From assembly GCA_017477435.1 (NCBI GenBank), contig JAFUVV010000016.1, forward strand, positions 15,421 through 79,420: a DNA stretch of 64,000 nt, given 5' to 3'. Made by a program: the position numbers and the translations under genes. The DNA comes from Prevotella sp. (GTDB lineage Bacteria; Bacteroidota; Bacteroidia; Bacteroidales; Bacteroidaceae). Of this stretch, positions 9,291-63,597 are shown piece after piece. The notes under the pieces were generated by a model. That model did not search any database. It was not told where the DNA came from and saw nothing but the letters and a program-made list of their open reading frames with translations. Position 1 is the first letter of the stretch. Each line of letters begins with the position of its first letter.

Positions 9291-9427
9291 CGGCAGTATC
9301 AAGCTTTGATACTGCCAGTATCTGGGCTTGATACTGCTGGTATCTGGCTTTGATACTGTCGCTATCTGGGCTTGATACTGAATCTATATGCGTTAGATAG
9401 TTTTACTATCTGTGCTTGATAGTAGCA
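9291..9427. repeat. Array of six 22-bp palindromic units, TATC variant (consensus CAGTATC-N7-GATACTG)
   Basis: Units begin at 9296, 9318, 9340, 9362, 9384, 9406, e.g. GTATCTGGGCTTGATACTGCTG. Confidence 0.92.
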
Positions 9428-9549: not shown

Positions 9550-9664
9550 AAAGCCTGAAGAAAACATCTTTTGCTTTCATGGCTATTTGTCAGATTAGCA
9601 ATGCGTTATGACATTTGTATTGCTCTCTGCAAATATTTTAAGCTGGTTGTTTTCTTCAGGCTTT
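9550..9664 (-). terminator. Long imperfect hairpin downstream of deoC (terminator or structured RNA)
   Basis: Perfect 17-bp IR AAAGCCTGAAGAAAACA / TGTTTTCTTCAGGCTTT with inner pairings; U-rich tail on the minus strand. Confidence 0.6.
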
Positions 9665-14293: not shown

Positions 14294-16165
14294 TTATCTT
14301 CCCATTAGTACGAGCAGAACGTTTATGTCGCTTGGTGAGACTCCTGGTATTCGGCTTGCCTGTGCGAGGGTTTCGGGGTTTATCTTGATGAGTTTCTGTC
14401 GTCCCTCTGTAGAGATTTCGTGGAGTGAGGCGTAGTCGAAGTGTCCTTTTATTTTGATGTTTTCGAGTCGTTGCATTTTCTCAGCCACCTCTTTCTCGCG
14501 TTCTATGTAGCCCTTATACTTCATTCTTATCTCTGCTGCCTCTGTGATTTCGTCTTTGCGGTTGGCAGGAGATTCGATCACGCTTTTGAGTTTCGGCAGG
14601 CAGTCGGCAAGTGCGTCGATGGTTACGAATGGTCTTGCCACGAGGTCGGCAATTTTACATCCCGAGGAGAGTGGGGTAGAGCCGAGCTTTTCGAGCGTGG
14701 AATTGACGGTTGTGGGTTTCACTGGAGTCGTATTGCAGAAGTTGATAATCCGGTTGATGGCCTCTTTTTTCTCCAGCCACCAGTCGTATCTTCCTCGTGA
14801 AGCCAGTCCTAGGCGGTAGGCTTTCTCCGTGAGTCTTTCGTCGGCATTATCCTGTCGGAGGAGTATTCTGTACTCAGCTCTTGATGTGAACATTCTGTAC
14901 GGCTCGTCGACCCCTTTTGTTGTGAGGTCGTCGATGAGTACTCCGATATAGCTTTCGTCGCGTCCCATTACGAACGGCTCCCCTCCGGAGCATTTTATTG
15001 CAGCGTTTATGCCGGCGACGGTACCCTGTCCTCCAGCCTCCTCATAGCCTGTTGTGCCGTTCACCTGACCAGCGAAGAACAGTCCGTCTATCACTTTCGA
15101 TTCGAGCGAATGCTGCAGTTGTGTAGGGTCGAAGAAATCGTATTCTATGGCATATCCAGGTCTATACACCTTCACGTCGCGCAGTGCTGGTATGTGGCGT
15201 ATTGCCTCCAGCTGGCAGTCGATAGGCATACTCGACGAGAATCCGTTCAGATACATCTCGTTGGTGTCGGTGCCTTCCGGTTCGAGGAACAGTGGATGTC
15301 GGTCTTTATCGGGGAAGGTGACGAGCTTTGTTTCTATCGAGGGGCAATATCTCGGTCCGATGCTTTGTATCTGTCCGTTGTAGAGTGGAGAGTCGTCGAT
15401 GCGGTTTCTCAGTGTGTTGTGCACCTCTTCGTTTGTATAGCAGATCCAGCATGGCAATTGTGGTAGGTTCTTCCCTTCGCCCATATAGCTGAACTTATAG
15501 TTGTTACGGTCGCCGTCTTGACGTTCCATGTCCTCGAAATGCACACTTCTGCGGTCGATTCTAACAGGTGTTCCTGTCTTCATTCTGTATGACCTAATCC
15601 CTTGACGTTCAATGCTTTCCGTTAGTTTGTGCGCTGCGGGTTCTGCACATCGTCCACCTTCTACTTGTTTGCGTCCGACATGCATCATGCCATTAAGGAA
15701 TGTACCAGCGGTGATGATGACACATCGGGCTTTGATATCAACACCCCAGATGGTTTTCACACCAGTTATCTTGCCATTTTCCACACATATTTCCTCAACC
15801 TGATCTTGCCAGATGTCGAGGTTGTCTGTGTGGTCGAGCGTTTCTCTCCATGTTGTAATGAATTTCGCCCTGTCGCATTGTGCTCTCGGACTCCACACCG
15901 CAGGTCCCTTTCCCATGTTAAGCATGCGGAACTGTATTGTTGTTGCATCGGTGACGAGTCCCATTTGTCCGCCCAATGCATCAATCTCGCGTACAATCTG
16001 TCCTTTCGCTATTCCTCCCACAGCAGGGTTGCAACTCATCTGTGCGATTTTATTCATATCCATCGTCACGAGACAAGTCCTTGCCCCGAGGTTGGCTGCA
16101 GCAGTAGCTGCTTCACATCCAGCATGACCACCGCCAACTACCACGATGTCGTATTTCATTTCCAT
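14294..16165 (-). CDS. mnmG: tRNA uridine 5-carboxymethylaminomethyl modification enzyme MnmG/GidA
   Basis: Start MEMKYDIVVVGGGHAG at 16165; SCNPAVGG, GPRYCPSIE, FAGQVNGTTGYEEA, YRMFTSRAEYR. Confidence 0.98.
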   Translation of the reverse strand: MEMKYDIVVVGGGHAGCEAATAAANLGARTCLVTMDMNKIAQMSCNPAVGGIAKGQIVREIDALGGQMGLVTDATTIQFRMLNMGKGPAVWSPRAQCDRAKFITTWRETLDHTDNLDIWQDQVEEICVENGKITGVKTIWGVDIKARCVIITAGTFLNGMMHVGRKQVEGGRCAEPAAHKLTESIERQGIRSYRMKTGTPVRIDRRSVHFEDMERQDGDRNNYKFSYMGEGKNLPQLPCWICYTNEEVHNTLRNRIDDSPLYNGQIQSIGPRYCPSIETKLVTFPDKDRHPLFLEPEGTDTNEMYLNGFSSSMPIDCQLEAIRHIPALRDVKVYRPGYAIEYDFFDPTQLQHSLESKVIDGLFFAGQVNGTTGYEEAGGQGTVAGINAAIKCSGGEPFVMGRDESYIGVLIDDLTTKGVDEPYRMFTSRAEYRILLRQDNADERLTEKAYRLGLASRGRYDWWLEKKEAINRIINFCNTTPVKPTTVNSTLEKLGSTPLSSGCKIADLVARPFVTIDALADCLPKLKSVIESPANRKDEITEAAEIRMKYKGYIEREKEVAEKMQRLENIKIKGHFDYASLHEISTEGRQKLIKINPETLAQASRIPGVSPSDINVLLVLMGR

Positions 16166-17507: not shown

Positions 17508-17790
17508 CATTATTAAAAAGTCTTTTCTCAGATACTTAGAAGCAGAAGAAAGACAACTTGTTAATGAGCAAGAAACCAAAGAGTCGGCCCTTACCCAGTA
17601 GCTTATTAATCATCTCAAGTATATGGGCATAAATGTCCATAATAGAGAAGAGATGATTCAATATCTCAATGAACATGGGTACGGAAGTATTCAGGAAGCT
17701 GTTAAAAGGGTTATGTATAACTTTGATTTTTTAGTTCGATACTCCCCCCTTGCAAAACCCTTTGTGGATAAAGGCTTTCGCGATATGTGA
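17508..17790 (+). pseudogene. AT-rich gene remnant of unknown origin with one in-frame TAG
   Basis: Frame open from 17461 to 17790 apart from TAG at 17599-17601: ...YLEAEERQLVNEQETKESALTQ*LINHLKYMGINVHNREEMIQYLNEHGYGSIQEAVKR... Confidence 0.4.
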
Positions 17791-17874
17791 AAATTTTGCT
17801 AGCAAAATTTTCAATAAAGAGCCCCTTTAATGGCAATAAAGAGCCTTTTATGTCGAAATTTTGCTAGCAAAATT
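17788..17874. repeat. Two palindromes flanking two 22-bp CAATAAA-N7-TTTAATG units
   Basis: Perfect 26-bp TGAAAATTTTGCTAGCAAAATTTTCA (17788-17813) and 18-bp AATTTTGCTAGCAAAATT (17857-17874); units at 17812 and 17834. Confidence 0.85.
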
Positions 17875-24605: not shown

Positions 24606-24705
24606 CTGCGACAGTACATGGTTCATGTACTTGGAGTACAAAGGCCATGTACTGCGAGTACAACGTTCTTGTACTTCGAGTACAAAGGCCATGTACTGTT
24701 GTCAG
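24606..24705. repeat. Array of four 22-bp palindromic units, GTAC variant (AGTACA-N7-TGTACT), with imperfect terminal IR
   Basis: Units at 24613, 24635, 24657, 24679; spacers TGGTTCA, AAGGCCA, ACGTTCT, AAGGCCA. Confidence 0.92.
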
Positions 24706-29944: not shown

Positions 29945-29986
29945 GGAGTGAGGAGTGAGGAGTGTGTAGTGAGGAGTGTGGAGTGA
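29945..29986. repeat. Six tandem heptamers (GGAGTGA/GGAGTGT)
   Basis: GGAGTGA GGAGTGA GGAGTGT GTAGTGA GGAGTGT GGAGTGA directly upstream of the oxidoreductase start. Confidence 0.85.
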
Positions 29987-30111
29987 GATATGCATATAAT
30001 ACGTCTACTTGTCTACTTATTAGGGTATAGAATTAACCGACGCATACAAATTTACATGAATTAGTTGACGTATACAAATTTTCTGCTCTTTATATATTAA
30101 GTTCTTTGGCG

Positions 30112-39050: not shown

Positions 39051-39187
39051 GTAACCGGGCTTGATGCCGGCGCTATCAAAGCCAGATAGCGACGCTATCT
39101 GTGCTTGATACCATCGCTATCCGGCTTTGATACCGTCACTATCCGGGCTTGATACTATCGCTATCTGGCTTTGATACTGCCGACAGT
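39051..39187. repeat. Array of six 22-bp palindromic units, TATC variant
   Basis: Units at 39051, 39073, 39095, 39117, 39139, 39161, e.g. CTATCTGGCTTTGATACTGCCG. Confidence 0.92.
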
Positions 39188-39211
39188 GCTTTGGCTGGAT
39201 AAAGACAAAAG

Positions 39212-39249
39212 AAAAGCCTTCCCTGTGCTCTTGGCGGGGAAGGCTTTTT
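39212..39249. terminator. Bidirectional terminator between convergent genes
   Basis: AAAAGCCTTCCC ... GGGAAGGCTTTT. Confidence 0.8.
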
Positions 39250-39250
39250 A

Positions 39251-44739: not shown

Positions 44740-44840
44740 CAGGCGGCAGTACATGGCTTTTGTACTCGCTGTACAAAGCCCATGTACTCCCAGTACAACG
44801 TTCATGTACTCGGAATACAAAGCCCATGTACTGCTGTCTG
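44740..44840. repeat. Array of four 22-bp palindromic units, GTAC variant, with 14-bp imperfect terminal IR
   Basis: Units at 44748, 44770, 44792, 44814; spacers TGGCTTT, AAGCCCA, ACGTTCA, AAGCCCA; ends CAGGCGGCAGTACA / TGTACTGCTGTCTG. Confidence 0.92.
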
Positions 44841-54495: not shown

Positions 54496-54605
54496 CAATA
54501 AAGTTGCTTGATACTCCCGGTAGATGGGCTCTTTGATGCCATTAAAGGGCCCACTTGATGGCATTAAAGAGGCCCTTTAATGGCATTAACCCATTGGGTT
54601 ATTGT
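54496..54605. repeat. Degenerate array of 22-bp units, CATTAAA-N7-TTTAATG variant
   Basis: CA(A/T)TAA in 22-bp register at 54496, 54540, 54562, 54584; best unit CATTAAA-GAGGCCC-TTTAATG. Confidence 0.75.
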
Positions 54606-56801: not shown

Positions 56802-58109
56802 ATGAAACGTACACTATTCGCCGCAATCATCGTCGCAATGTCGTCGATGCCTGCACGGGCACAGGACACTGACAAAGGTGCCGGTGCACCCCGCCGGGAA
56901 GAAATTCTCCCGATAGAGGTTGACTTCGAAGGCTTTGAATGGGCAAAGGTAACCAATGTCTACGACGGCATCTTCGCCATACAGAAGAGCGATAACAAGG
57001 GAATCATCTGGAATTTCTACAACGTCGAGACGGCGGCACCAGTGTCACGCAGAGGATGGCTCACGCAAGACAGCCCGCGCTTCGATGGTGGCGTCTGTGC
57101 CGTCTGCGATACCACACCCGTAAAGGGCAGTCCCGCCAACGACCCTAAATACCAGTGGTATATCCTCCACAAGTCGGGCGAAACTACTGCCCTCGACCCC
57201 GCCATCACTGCCGTCGGCAACTTCTGCGACGGGCTGGCAGTGGCCAAGGCCAATGGCAAGATGTTCTTCATCAACGACAAGGGACGGACCGTGGCGCCAG
57301 ACGTACAGCCCAGAAGTTTCGTTACCTATCCACTGAGAGACAACCGGCGGCTGTTCATGGGGGCATCCATGAAGTTCGGCTACCTCGATGGCGAAGGACG
57401 CATCGCCATTGAGCCGCAGTATAAAAATGCTCACAACTTCAGCAGCAATTATGCCGTCGTTTGCAACGCAAGCAGGAAAAATGTCATTATCGATCCCACA
57501 GGACGCGTCGTCAGAGAGATACCCTCGCAGTACGTGTCGGTCACCGGAACGACAGTGACCGATTTCGTCGATGGCGGAGCAGTGGCGCTCAACACTGAGA
57601 CCGGCCGCTACGATATCATCACCCCAACCCTCGAGGTGCGTGCCAGCTACGACAAAGCCACGGCTTTCTATAACACCATTATCAACGAAGACGCCAACGC
57701 CATCGTCATGAACAACGATTGGAAACACCCGCAGATCTGTTCTACCAATGGGCGTACTCTCGGCCACAATGTCTGCATCAGCTTCCGCGATATCAGCGGG
57801 AATGAAATATTCCTGCAGCCCGAGCCCGACGGCGAAGCCGACAACCCACTGGCTGCTGACCTTCTCGAACGCAGCTATTGGAACAATACTGGCCTGCGGC
57901 TGGCCAATGTCTATTTGGGAGAAACCAGAGGAGCGCTATTCAACAGCAAGGGAGAGGTGTGTTGGACGTTCGACAACGAATACTTTAAACCCGATGACTT
58001 CTCACCGGCAGGCTATGCCAAGGGAATCTTCTGGACTGCCGACAAGAGCGACCACTTTGTCTTCTTCGACACACAGGGAAACATCAAGCTCGAGGTTGTT
58101 GTGAAGTAG
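56802..58109 (+). CDS. Secreted WG-repeat protein
   Basis: Start MKRTLF; FCDGLAVAK..FFINDKG, FGYLDGEG.IAIEPQY..A.NFS. Confidence 0.8.
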   Translation: MKRTLFAAIIVAMSSMPARAQDTDKGAGAPRREEILPIEVDFEGFEWAKVTNVYDGIFAIQKSDNKGIIWNFYNVETAAPVSRRGWLTQDSPRFDGGVCAVCDTTPVKGSPANDPKYQWYILHKSGETTALDPAITAVGNFCDGLAVAKANGKMFFINDKGRTVAPDVQPRSFVTYPLRDNRRLFMGASMKFGYLDGEGRIAIEPQYKNAHNFSSNYAVVCNASRKNVIIDPTGRVVREIPSQYVSVTGTTVTDFVDGGAVALNTETGRYDIITPTLEVRASYDKATAFYNTIINEDANAIVMNNDWKHPQICSTNGRTLGHNVCISFRDISGNEIFLQPEPDGEADNPLAADLLERSYWNNTGLRLANVYLGETRGALFNSKGEVCWTFDNEYFKPDDFSPAGYAKGIFWTADKSDHFVFFDTQGNIKLEVVVK

Positions 58110-58168
58110 ATAGTTGATGGGCAGGTAAGTTGACAAGTAGATAAGTCGACAAGTTGACAAGTTAATTG
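58108..58168. repeat. Degenerate tandem octamers (GACAAGTT-like)
   Basis: GGTAAGTT GACAAGTA GATAAGTC GACAAGTT GACAAGTT. Confidence 0.7.
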
Positions 58169-63430: not shown

Positions 63431-63516
63431 CAGTACATGGGCCTTGTACTGCAAGTACATGGCCTTTGTACTGCGAGTACACGTGCTTTGTACTGCGAGT
63501 ACACGGGCTTTGTACT
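63431..63516. repeat. Array of four 22-bp palindromic units, GTAC variant
   Basis: Units at 63432, 63454, 63476, 63498; spacers TGGGCCT, TGGCCTT, CGTGCTT, CGGGCTT. Confidence 0.92.
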
Positions 63517-63597
63517 CCAAACAGTTAAAACCTATGCCGTTGCTTTGCGGTGTGCTCTTTTTTCATTACCTTTGCTGCCGATAAAAGATAATTAGCA

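Follow-up and report, generated by a model that had tools for sequence, protein, structure and literature searches.

Prevotella is a dominant genus of the rumen and gut. Plasmid-origin iterons comprise, for example, four to seven 22-bp direct repeats, and the proteins bound to them lie on one helix face. REP and BIME elements of Enterobacteria and Pseudomonas are palindromes linked to a REP-associated tyrosine transposase (RAYT), with a GTAG/CGTC tag at one foot (PMC3733652). BrickBuilt, a minisatellite-MITE of Porphyromonas gingivalis, is made of a 23-nt unit in 1 to 22.8 copies, has leader and tail segments of up to ~300 nt and IS5-like terminal repeats, and occurs in 19 copies per genome, with some target duplications reported (Klein et al. 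2015, PMC4596501).

We analyzed a stretch of 64,000 nucleotides from a Prevotella sp. (positions 15421 to 79420 of contig C40 of the source genome, G000; hereafter the window), in which an earlier note had described seven intergenic arrays with an exact 22-bp period. The source assembly is a MAG of 2.32 Mb (2,320,315 bp) in 62 contigs, with 51% G+C and 78% completeness. For one of its genes, the closest named relatives were rumen Prevotellaceae and Prevotella MAGs. All seven arrays were found in their places, each built of 22-bp units.

Census and anatomy of the 22-bp arrays

Across the source genome, 22 bp was by far the top tandem-repeat period, with 306 TRF rows versus 54 for period 21 and 7 for period 23; the fixed period first noticed in the window therefore holds genome-wide. 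Merging these rows yielded 275 arrays totaling 24,970 bp, or ~1% of the sequence, and 166 of the 275 had the usual size of four units (~87 bp). Parsed in the phase that maximizes dyad symmetry, the genome contained 961 palindromic 22-bp units, while true single units were very rare (~3). An arm-independent search for three GGSYYT loops at fixed spacing returned 149 matches at 22 bp, compared to 0-1 at the other spacings from 19 to 25 bp and 3 for the reversed pattern; chance is excluded as an explanation of the 22-bp loop spacing. By the same loop pattern, the source genome was the densest among ~520 genomes scanned. Arrays were present in 244 of 1,413 intergenic gaps (17%) and in ~45% of the long gaps. 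Periods 7 and 14, the second and third commonest tandem classes with 179 and 101 TRF rows, may represent another dispersed family. Short arrays of G/A/T-rich heptamers or octamers (GGAGTGA; AAGTAGAT/AAGTTGAC) were observed in the window at 29945-29987 and 58104-58163 and in locus L002 at ~2105-2140.

Each unit consists of a 6-bp arm, a 7-nt loop of the form T-G-G-[GC]-[CT]-[TC]-T (GGSYYT type), the inverted arm, and a 3-nt junction. A 7-7-7-1 layout had been proposed for it; the 22-bp period and the 7-nt center of that proposal stand, but the 7-bp arm does not. Among 686 oriented units, the outermost pair (1/21) was complementary in 33%, no better than with shuffled partners. Thus, the arm is effectively 6 bp and the junction 3 nt (6-7-6-3 rather than 7-7-7-1). 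In the same units, pairs 3/19, 6/16, and 7/15 were Watson-Crick in 93-99%, versus 59-70% with shuffled partners, and the changes were compensatory (G-C/C-G, 536/94; C-G/T-A, 486/158; A-T/C-G, 518/159). These data bear out the earlier claim that arm changes are compensated across the dyad, the test inside this one genome comprising few independent events. By arm pair, the 961 units included 580 GTACA/TGTAC, 99 CTATC/GATAG, 37 GTATC/GATAC, and 40 mixed TATC forms, with CAAAA, TTAAA, CTTTA, and CATAA as minor arm families. Common to all arm families was the 7-nt center: TGGGCTT (or its complement, AAGCCCA), TGGCTTT, TGGGCCT, or TGGCCTT.

Four-unit GTACA arrays supplied 381 units, in which arm columns were 97-100% invariant, loop columns had two or three states, and the junction read [CG]-N-[CG]; the GTACA unit consensus is [CG]AGTACA...TGTACT[CG]. 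Each such unit contains GTAC twice. Over the whole genome, GTAC occurred at 0.84 of its trinucleotide expectation, and the corresponding values for GATC and CTAG were 0.43 and 0.11. Loop orientation was mostly uniform (FFFF in 57 arrays, FFF in 16, and FFFFF in 12), and one end unit was flipped in 19 arrays, about a fifth. The clean four-unit arrays (n = 127) begin with CAGTACA and finish with TGTACTG. Their left flank is YYGGCNG and their right flank its inverted counterpart, CNGCCRR, which makes a 13- to 14-bp inverted consensus per end; the flanking motif was strongest at -5 to -3 (GGC) and +3 to +5 (GCC), and flank conservation ended after 7 bp. The common form of the element is ~101 bp long and can be written YYGGCNG-CAGTACA ... 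TGTACTG-CNGCCRR around four head-to-tail 22-bp units. Elsewhere in the genome, the end motifs occurred as degenerate arrays or as chance matches in genes.

A single-stranded array, whether RNA or DNA, folds into four short hairpins or into two to one long ones. Folding z-scores ranged from -4.3 to -8.3 relative to shuffles, and both strands folded about equally. Hairpins often extend over two or four units, since every arm is complementary to the others and the GGSC centers pair. Compared as wholes, arrays had a nearest-copy identity of 0.900, versus 0.891 for a unit-shuffled null (standard deviation, 0.0015), a significant and small difference; 7 of 127 arrays had a partner at an identity of at least 95%. 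In a search for target-site duplication with k = 2-8, matches between flanking k-mers never exceeded a permuted-partner null, whatever the offset. The assembly (78% complete) contained neither a longer or autonomous element with array ends nor paired ends around a transposase gene.

TRF called period 22 at six of the seven window arrays, all of which are flanked by ordinary housekeeping genes. The six-unit array at 9291-9427 on the + strand (TRF call, 9294-9421) has GTATC/CTATC arms and loops of the TGGGCTT type on the + strand; it lies in a convergent gap between a polyprenyl synthetase gene, whose stop codon is 25 bp away, and a DeoC-type aldolase gene. The same gap holds a 16-bp inverted repeat, AAAGCCTGAAGAAAAC and its complement, at 9551-9566 and 9648-9664, ~80 bp apart. 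A four-unit GTACA array on the - strand (24606-24699; TRF call, 24613-24698) has loops that read AAGGCCA on the + strand, the sense strand for the two + genes that flank it, and its alternating loops give a 44-bp super-period. At 39051-39178 (+ strand; TRF call, 39093-39177), a six-unit array of the CTATC/GATAC family with degenerate first units occupies a convergent gap and is followed by a separate canonical terminator, a hairpin with a T run, at ~39210-39250. The four-unit GTACA element with inverted ends at 44740-44840 (- strand; units at 44747-44833; TRF call, 44747-44832) lies between cobW-like and dprA genes and, as a single strand, folds into one long hairpin over the whole element. 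Another four-unit GTACA array, at 63431-63517 on the + strand (TRF call, 63432-63520), lies in a divergent gap and has the loops TGGGCCT, TGGCCTT, CGTGCTT, and CGGGCTT.

The two remaining arrays, for which no strand was assigned, are of the CATTAAA type. One, at 17812-17855, comprises just two units of the AATAAAG/CTTTAAT family, which put it under the TRF score threshold, and sits between two AAAATTTTGCTAGCAAAATT palindromes (17790-17811 and 17856-17874). The other, at 54496-54600 (TRF call, 54533-54589), comprises ~2.6 units of the CATTAAAG-GGCCC-CTTTAATG family followed by a TTAACCCATTGGGTTA palindrome. These arrays had been described as one of three co-varying variants of a single family. 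The compensatory arms were confirmed, but the CATTAAA arrays proved to be a separate family of ~17 loci with a more palindromic center (GGGCCC) and mosaic surroundings that include AAAATTTTGCTAGCAAAATTTT and CAACCCAATGGGTTG palindromes. Pairs of AAAATTTTGCTAGCAAAATT(TT) palindromes bracket two-unit TTAAAG-GGCCC-type arrays at the window locus and on contigs C10, C15, and C55 of the source genome, and together with CAACCCAATGGGTTG palindromes they make up mosaic intergenic blocks.

Placement, spacing, and distribution

Of the 242 palindromic arrays, 5 lay deep inside a called ORF, and all five ORFs were short. With arrays masked, array-bearing gaps were divergent in 73 cases, convergent in 47, and co-directional in 65 + 49, and in each gap class arrays were found in about a quarter to a half of the gaps of at least 150 bp. 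The distance from a stop codon to the array was ~90-120 bp, and that from the array to a start codon was ~140-180 bp. Where both neighboring genes run in the same direction, the C-rich AAGCCCA loop was on the sense strand in 69 cases versus 31 (p = 2e-4), and array orientation showed no relation to GC skew in the source genome (p = 0.36). These data indicate that the orientation bias is tied to transcription and not to replication. A role as terminators was rejected: a canonical terminator coexists with the array at 39051, and a consensus scan placed no terminator inside an array. Sigma-70-like matches inside arrays arise from the repeat itself, and the sigma-70 consensus is not applicable to Bacteroidota promoters.

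The arrays are over-dispersed along the source genome, with a spacing of ~6-7 kb that is more even than chance. Distances between array-bearing intergenic regions (n = 187) had a median of 6.4 kb, a CV of 0.605, and a fitted gamma shape of 3.5, and only 7% were below 3 kb. When arrays were reassigned to intergenic regions of matched native length, the CV was 0.865 ± 0.058 and 28% of distances fell below 3 kb; within-contig nulls with a minimum native length of 60-200 bp gave a CV of 0.78-0.83 and 22-27%. In each case, 0/2000 simulations reached the observed value. The gene calls behind these figures were our own crude ORF calls, used identically in the nulls, so that the absolute numbers are approximate. 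The exclusion crossed arm families: 12% of non-GTACA arrays had a GTACA array less than 3 kb away, versus 25% expected (p = 0.0075). A similar tendency was seen in G119, with a CV of ~0.56 calculated by hand from 14 gaps. To our knowledge, regular spacing has not been reported for any interspersed repeat of bacteria.

The GTACA-arm pattern had 488 matches per strand in the source genome versus 0-8 in 120 other species of the genus. The arm-independent loop pattern was patchy within the genus: it was found 149 times in the source genome, 119 in G084, 104 in G067, 43 in G125, 35 in G069, and 30 in G001, and ~0 times in most others, with controls at 0-3 in most genomes. Within the family, 10 of the 27 genera sampled had the pattern, and counts in the rest of the order were mostly near the control level. 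Densities in other genomes, determined on sampled stretches from all TRF rows of period 20-24, ranged from one per 5.6 kb in G119 (its main AAAGAAGCCTTCTTTG-type family being estimated at ~one per 9-12 kb) through one per 11 kb in G090 and one per 29 kb in G022, both counts possibly including rows outside the array family, to ~one per 50 kb in the single-contig genome G060 and ~one per 74 kb in G084, where the GTACAAAGGCCTTGTAC type is related to that of the source genome; G101 had very few. Arrays of other genomes have unlike arms, and what is common to all of them is the 22-bp period, the palindrome, and a center containing GGC/GCC. The 22-bp preference extends to G060. The division of the unit differs, being 6-7-6-3 in the source genome and 7-5-7-3 in G001; in G084 and G119, palindromic cores alternate with short variable linkers, as judged by eye.

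The closest sampled congeners share only ~72% protein identity with the source genome in one housekeeping gene, and comparison of orthologous gaps, which the earlier note had called for, gave little common ground. Of 29 species compared, 27 have a syntenic gap between the polyprenyl synthetase (pps) and deoC genes; it holds a 21- to 23-bp array of unrelated sequence in 6-7 of the 27 and is empty, at 40-150 bp, in the others. Since three sampled species with an array in this gap have densities of one per 5.6-29 kb, independent colonization of a permissive gap suffices to explain the coincidence. At orthologous gene ends of G084 and the source genome, which have the GTACA type in common, an array was present on the same side in 2/6 cases versus a 15% background. 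Ninety gaps were syntenic with G084, G060, or G101, and none was filled in the other genome, which leaves this comparison without power. Conservation of array positions between species is thus not supported, no filled-versus-empty site pair was obtained across the compared genomes, and no duplication exceeded its null. A metagenome scan returned one near-identical contig (98.8% over 1.5 kb) with the same four-unit array as at 44740; the two copies differ at four places in ~110 bp, including a GG/CC flip within a junction. On this contig (L170:2185 onward, window ~44586), synteny is lost ~150 bp beyond the array, at a short CACAGATTT repeat, with a glutamate-synthase-like gene in place of the cobW-like gene.

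Candidate explanations

The reading we favor, tentatively and at slightly less than even probability, is that the arrays are a lineage-specific, non-coding, non-autonomous REP/MITE-like hairpin-array element whose copies are kept under constraint. A trans-acting factor would recognize the fold and the common GGSYYT loop rather than the arm sequence and would spread whole arrays into intergenic DNA without target duplication. Such recognition would account for several arm families with one loop and one geometry, both in the source genome and across the genus. Inserted copies would stay constrained, in that a single arm change would break pairing and the arms would be held at 97-100% invariance, while loop and junction could drift among a few states or flip. 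Copies that arise near an existing array, or with the G-rich loop on the sense strand of a transcript, would be lost or never form, which would produce both the 6-7 kb spacing and the 69:31 strand bias.

Spread and turnover are favored by the species-specific arms and copy number, the inverted-repeat ends, the rarity of single units, the whole-array copying signal, and the lack of shared positions between species. Constraint on every copy is favored by the near absence of arm decay, the few loop states, the strict unit length, the transcription-linked strand bias, and the neighbor exclusion across families, and the retention of all four units in the 98.8%-identical metagenome contig agrees with it. 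With evidence for both, a non-autonomous element with copies under selection is favored; REPs have held a likewise ambiguous status between spreading elements and constrained copies. Against this reading, arms that have almost never decayed are unusual for a purely selfish family of such size, the whole-array copying signal is small (0.900 versus 0.891), and neither a target-site duplication nor a longer autonomous relative with array ends was seen. We infer movement of the arrays from sequence, and no mobilizing gene for them was found in the analysis of the source genome. The earlier suggestion of a non-autonomous element spread in trans fits best with respect to ends, arms, copy number, and unshared positions, but its mover gene did not come to light. 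Even if the arrays only spread selfishly, they would be a new REP-like class with a mover to be found, and they are a practical strain-typing marker as well as a cause of assembly breaks.

The even spacing invites a different view, in which the arrays would be host docking sites on double-stranded DNA for a dimeric or filament-forming protein (nucleoid-associated, topoisomerase, or condensin type). We consider this possible but on the unlikely side, and the same holds for its corollary that four palindromes phased at two helical turns organize the chromosome into ~7 kb units. It is consistent with a 22-bp period kept by sequence-unrelated families in several species while the palindrome/linker split varies, with invariant arms around a semi-variable spacer of fixed length, with the over-dispersion (CV, 0.605 versus 0.78-0.87; 7% versus 22-28% below 3 kb; 0/2000 simulations), and with the exclusion across arm families in the source genome and the tendency in G119. 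However, several arm sequences occur per genome and others between species, so a docking protein would need to read shape or co-evolve quickly. A conserved essential role is unlikely, given that members of a single genus differ in density from one per 8 kb to almost zero. Conserved positions are not supported, and no candidate protein was found; the nucleoid-protein sites that had been suggested thus gain support from the spacing but not a binding partner. Near-neighbor exclusion across arm families fits a shared functional or structural constraint better than it fits sequence-specific transposition immunity, which counts against the favored reading. In a related proposal, which we regard as rather doubtful, the arrays would be chromosome spacing elements, used or mutually excluded by a structure-reading factor whatever the arm family. 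Its quantitative form, equally doubtful, would place any two arrays ~4 kb or more apart and most distances at 4-10 kb. If true, it would imply a role in nucleoid domains or topology, or a new short-range immunity from a 100-bp element; if the even, family-independent spacing reflects function, the arrays would offer a sequence handle on chromosome partitioning or supercoiling in Bacteroidales. The transcription-linked bias raises yet another possibility, that the arrays act in RNA as co-transcribed tandem hairpins that might stabilize or terminate a transcript or mark it for processing, a type of role also proposed for REPs. The AAGCCCA preference on the sense strand, independent of GC skew, the distances to stop and start codons, and the stable folding of single strands are all compatible with this. 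Nonetheless, we judge an RNA role quite unlikely: one array in three is oriented the other way, divergent gaps hold 73 arrays, the two strands hardly differ in how well they fold, and a canonical terminator stands next to an array at 39210-39250.

The mobility-based alternatives fare less well. Arm-spacer-arm geometry with an asymmetric center would suit core sites of a tyrosine recombinase (7-7-7), and inverted-repeat ends with the over-dispersed spacing expected from immunity would suit a MITE mobilized by a DDE transposase that shows target immunity. Both are very unlikely: the arms effectively span 6 bp, neither a target-site duplication nor a longer element with array ends was seen, the exclusion crosses arm families, and no association with a recombinase or transposase was observed. 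The analogy to lambda-type integrase sites drawn in the earlier note accordingly did not extend beyond geometry, given arms of 6 rather than 7 bp, 961 sites, and no recombinase link. That the arrays are REP/BIME elements moved by a RAYT is extremely unlikely, although the source genome has four Y1_Tnp matches and one of these genes, on contig C56, is followed by a GTATC array ~40 bp past its stop codon. In other genomes, 38 homologues of this gene have different hairpin repeats, of 42-220 bp, at their flanks and never palindromic 22-bp arrays. Homologues of the RAYT-like protein on contig C46 are absent from the five array-richest genomes of the sample, and no 22-bp array accompanies the Y1_Tnp loci of G084, G069, and G125. 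Furthermore, the arrays have neither the GTAG nor the CGTC tag, and their orientation is independent of GC skew. Co-occurrence with RAYT genes, which had been proposed as a check, therefore failed to appear, and the homologue flanks, the absence of C46 homologues, and the missing tags largely refute a RAYT as partner of the 22-bp arrays.

Y1_Tnp/RAYT-like genes of the genus have tandem hairpin repeats of their own, of 43-123 bp and often on both sides (L002:1150-1480; L012, L017, L052, L054, and others), with stems such as GTCC-GAAG-GGAC and CCCC-GAAG-GGGT. These repeats are a second, classical REP/RAYT-like system, distinct from the 22-bp arrays. A RAYT domain was also observed in frame within a 1058-aa MmeI-family type IIG restriction-modification protein, encoded on the - strand of contig C5 (L003:34-3210). 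At residues 473-586 the insert matches NCBIfam NF047646 (88.7 bits; cut-off, 80), and it divides the methyltransferase domain in two. ARASRPQ precedes the insert, ASRPQ is repeated just after it, and a similar ARAPRK follows.

Comparison with known repeat systems

Rfam returned 0 matches at the gathering score in the window, only chance-level miRNA matches (E of at least 0.2), and no description of a 22-bp hairpin-array family was found in the literature searched. The earlier note had called the arrays an uncharacterized non-coding system and had named a match to a described REP or MITE family as grounds for dropping that view; no such match was found, and the arrays have neither the RAYT link of REPs nor the architecture of BrickBuilt. 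CRISPR identity was rejected, as the array units abut and have no spacers between them.

The arrays share with plasmid iterons a series of four to seven direct repeats in 22-bp phase. However, iterons occupy one locus beside a rep gene, and the arrays comprise 275 chromosomal loci of palindromic units with no adjacent Rep-like gene. BrickBuilt resembles them in its occurrence in Bacteroidales and its limited host range, but the arrays differ in their 22-bp unit, in usually having four units, in having no leader or tail, and in their ~275 copies. In common with MITEs of the DDE-transposase type, the arrays of the source genome have terminal inverted repeats and a small size (~101 bp), yet neither a target-site duplication nor an autonomous partner accompanies them.

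The resemblance to REP/BIME elements is broader. Both are high-copy, extragenic, short imperfect palindromes that are clustered and species-specific and lack target duplication. The 19-nt palindrome within the 22-bp unit, in 961 units, corresponds to the imperfect extragenic palindrome of 20-40 nt that is used to define REPs by size and copy number. Both form stable transcript hairpins, and for REPs roles in DNA topology and mRNA stability have been proposed. Unlike in REPs, there is no GTAG or CGTC tag in the unit consensus or in the YYGGCNG/CNGCCRR flanks, and a RAYT link is lacking. The units follow one another strictly head to tail every 22 bp, in contrast to the alternating REPs and variable typed linkers of BIMEs, and the arrays further depart from REPs in the rarity of single units, their defined inverted ends, and their over-dispersed spacing in the genome. 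Altogether, the arrays of the source genome are a repeat family, described in no literature searched, that resembles the REP elements of E. coli without having their hallmarks.
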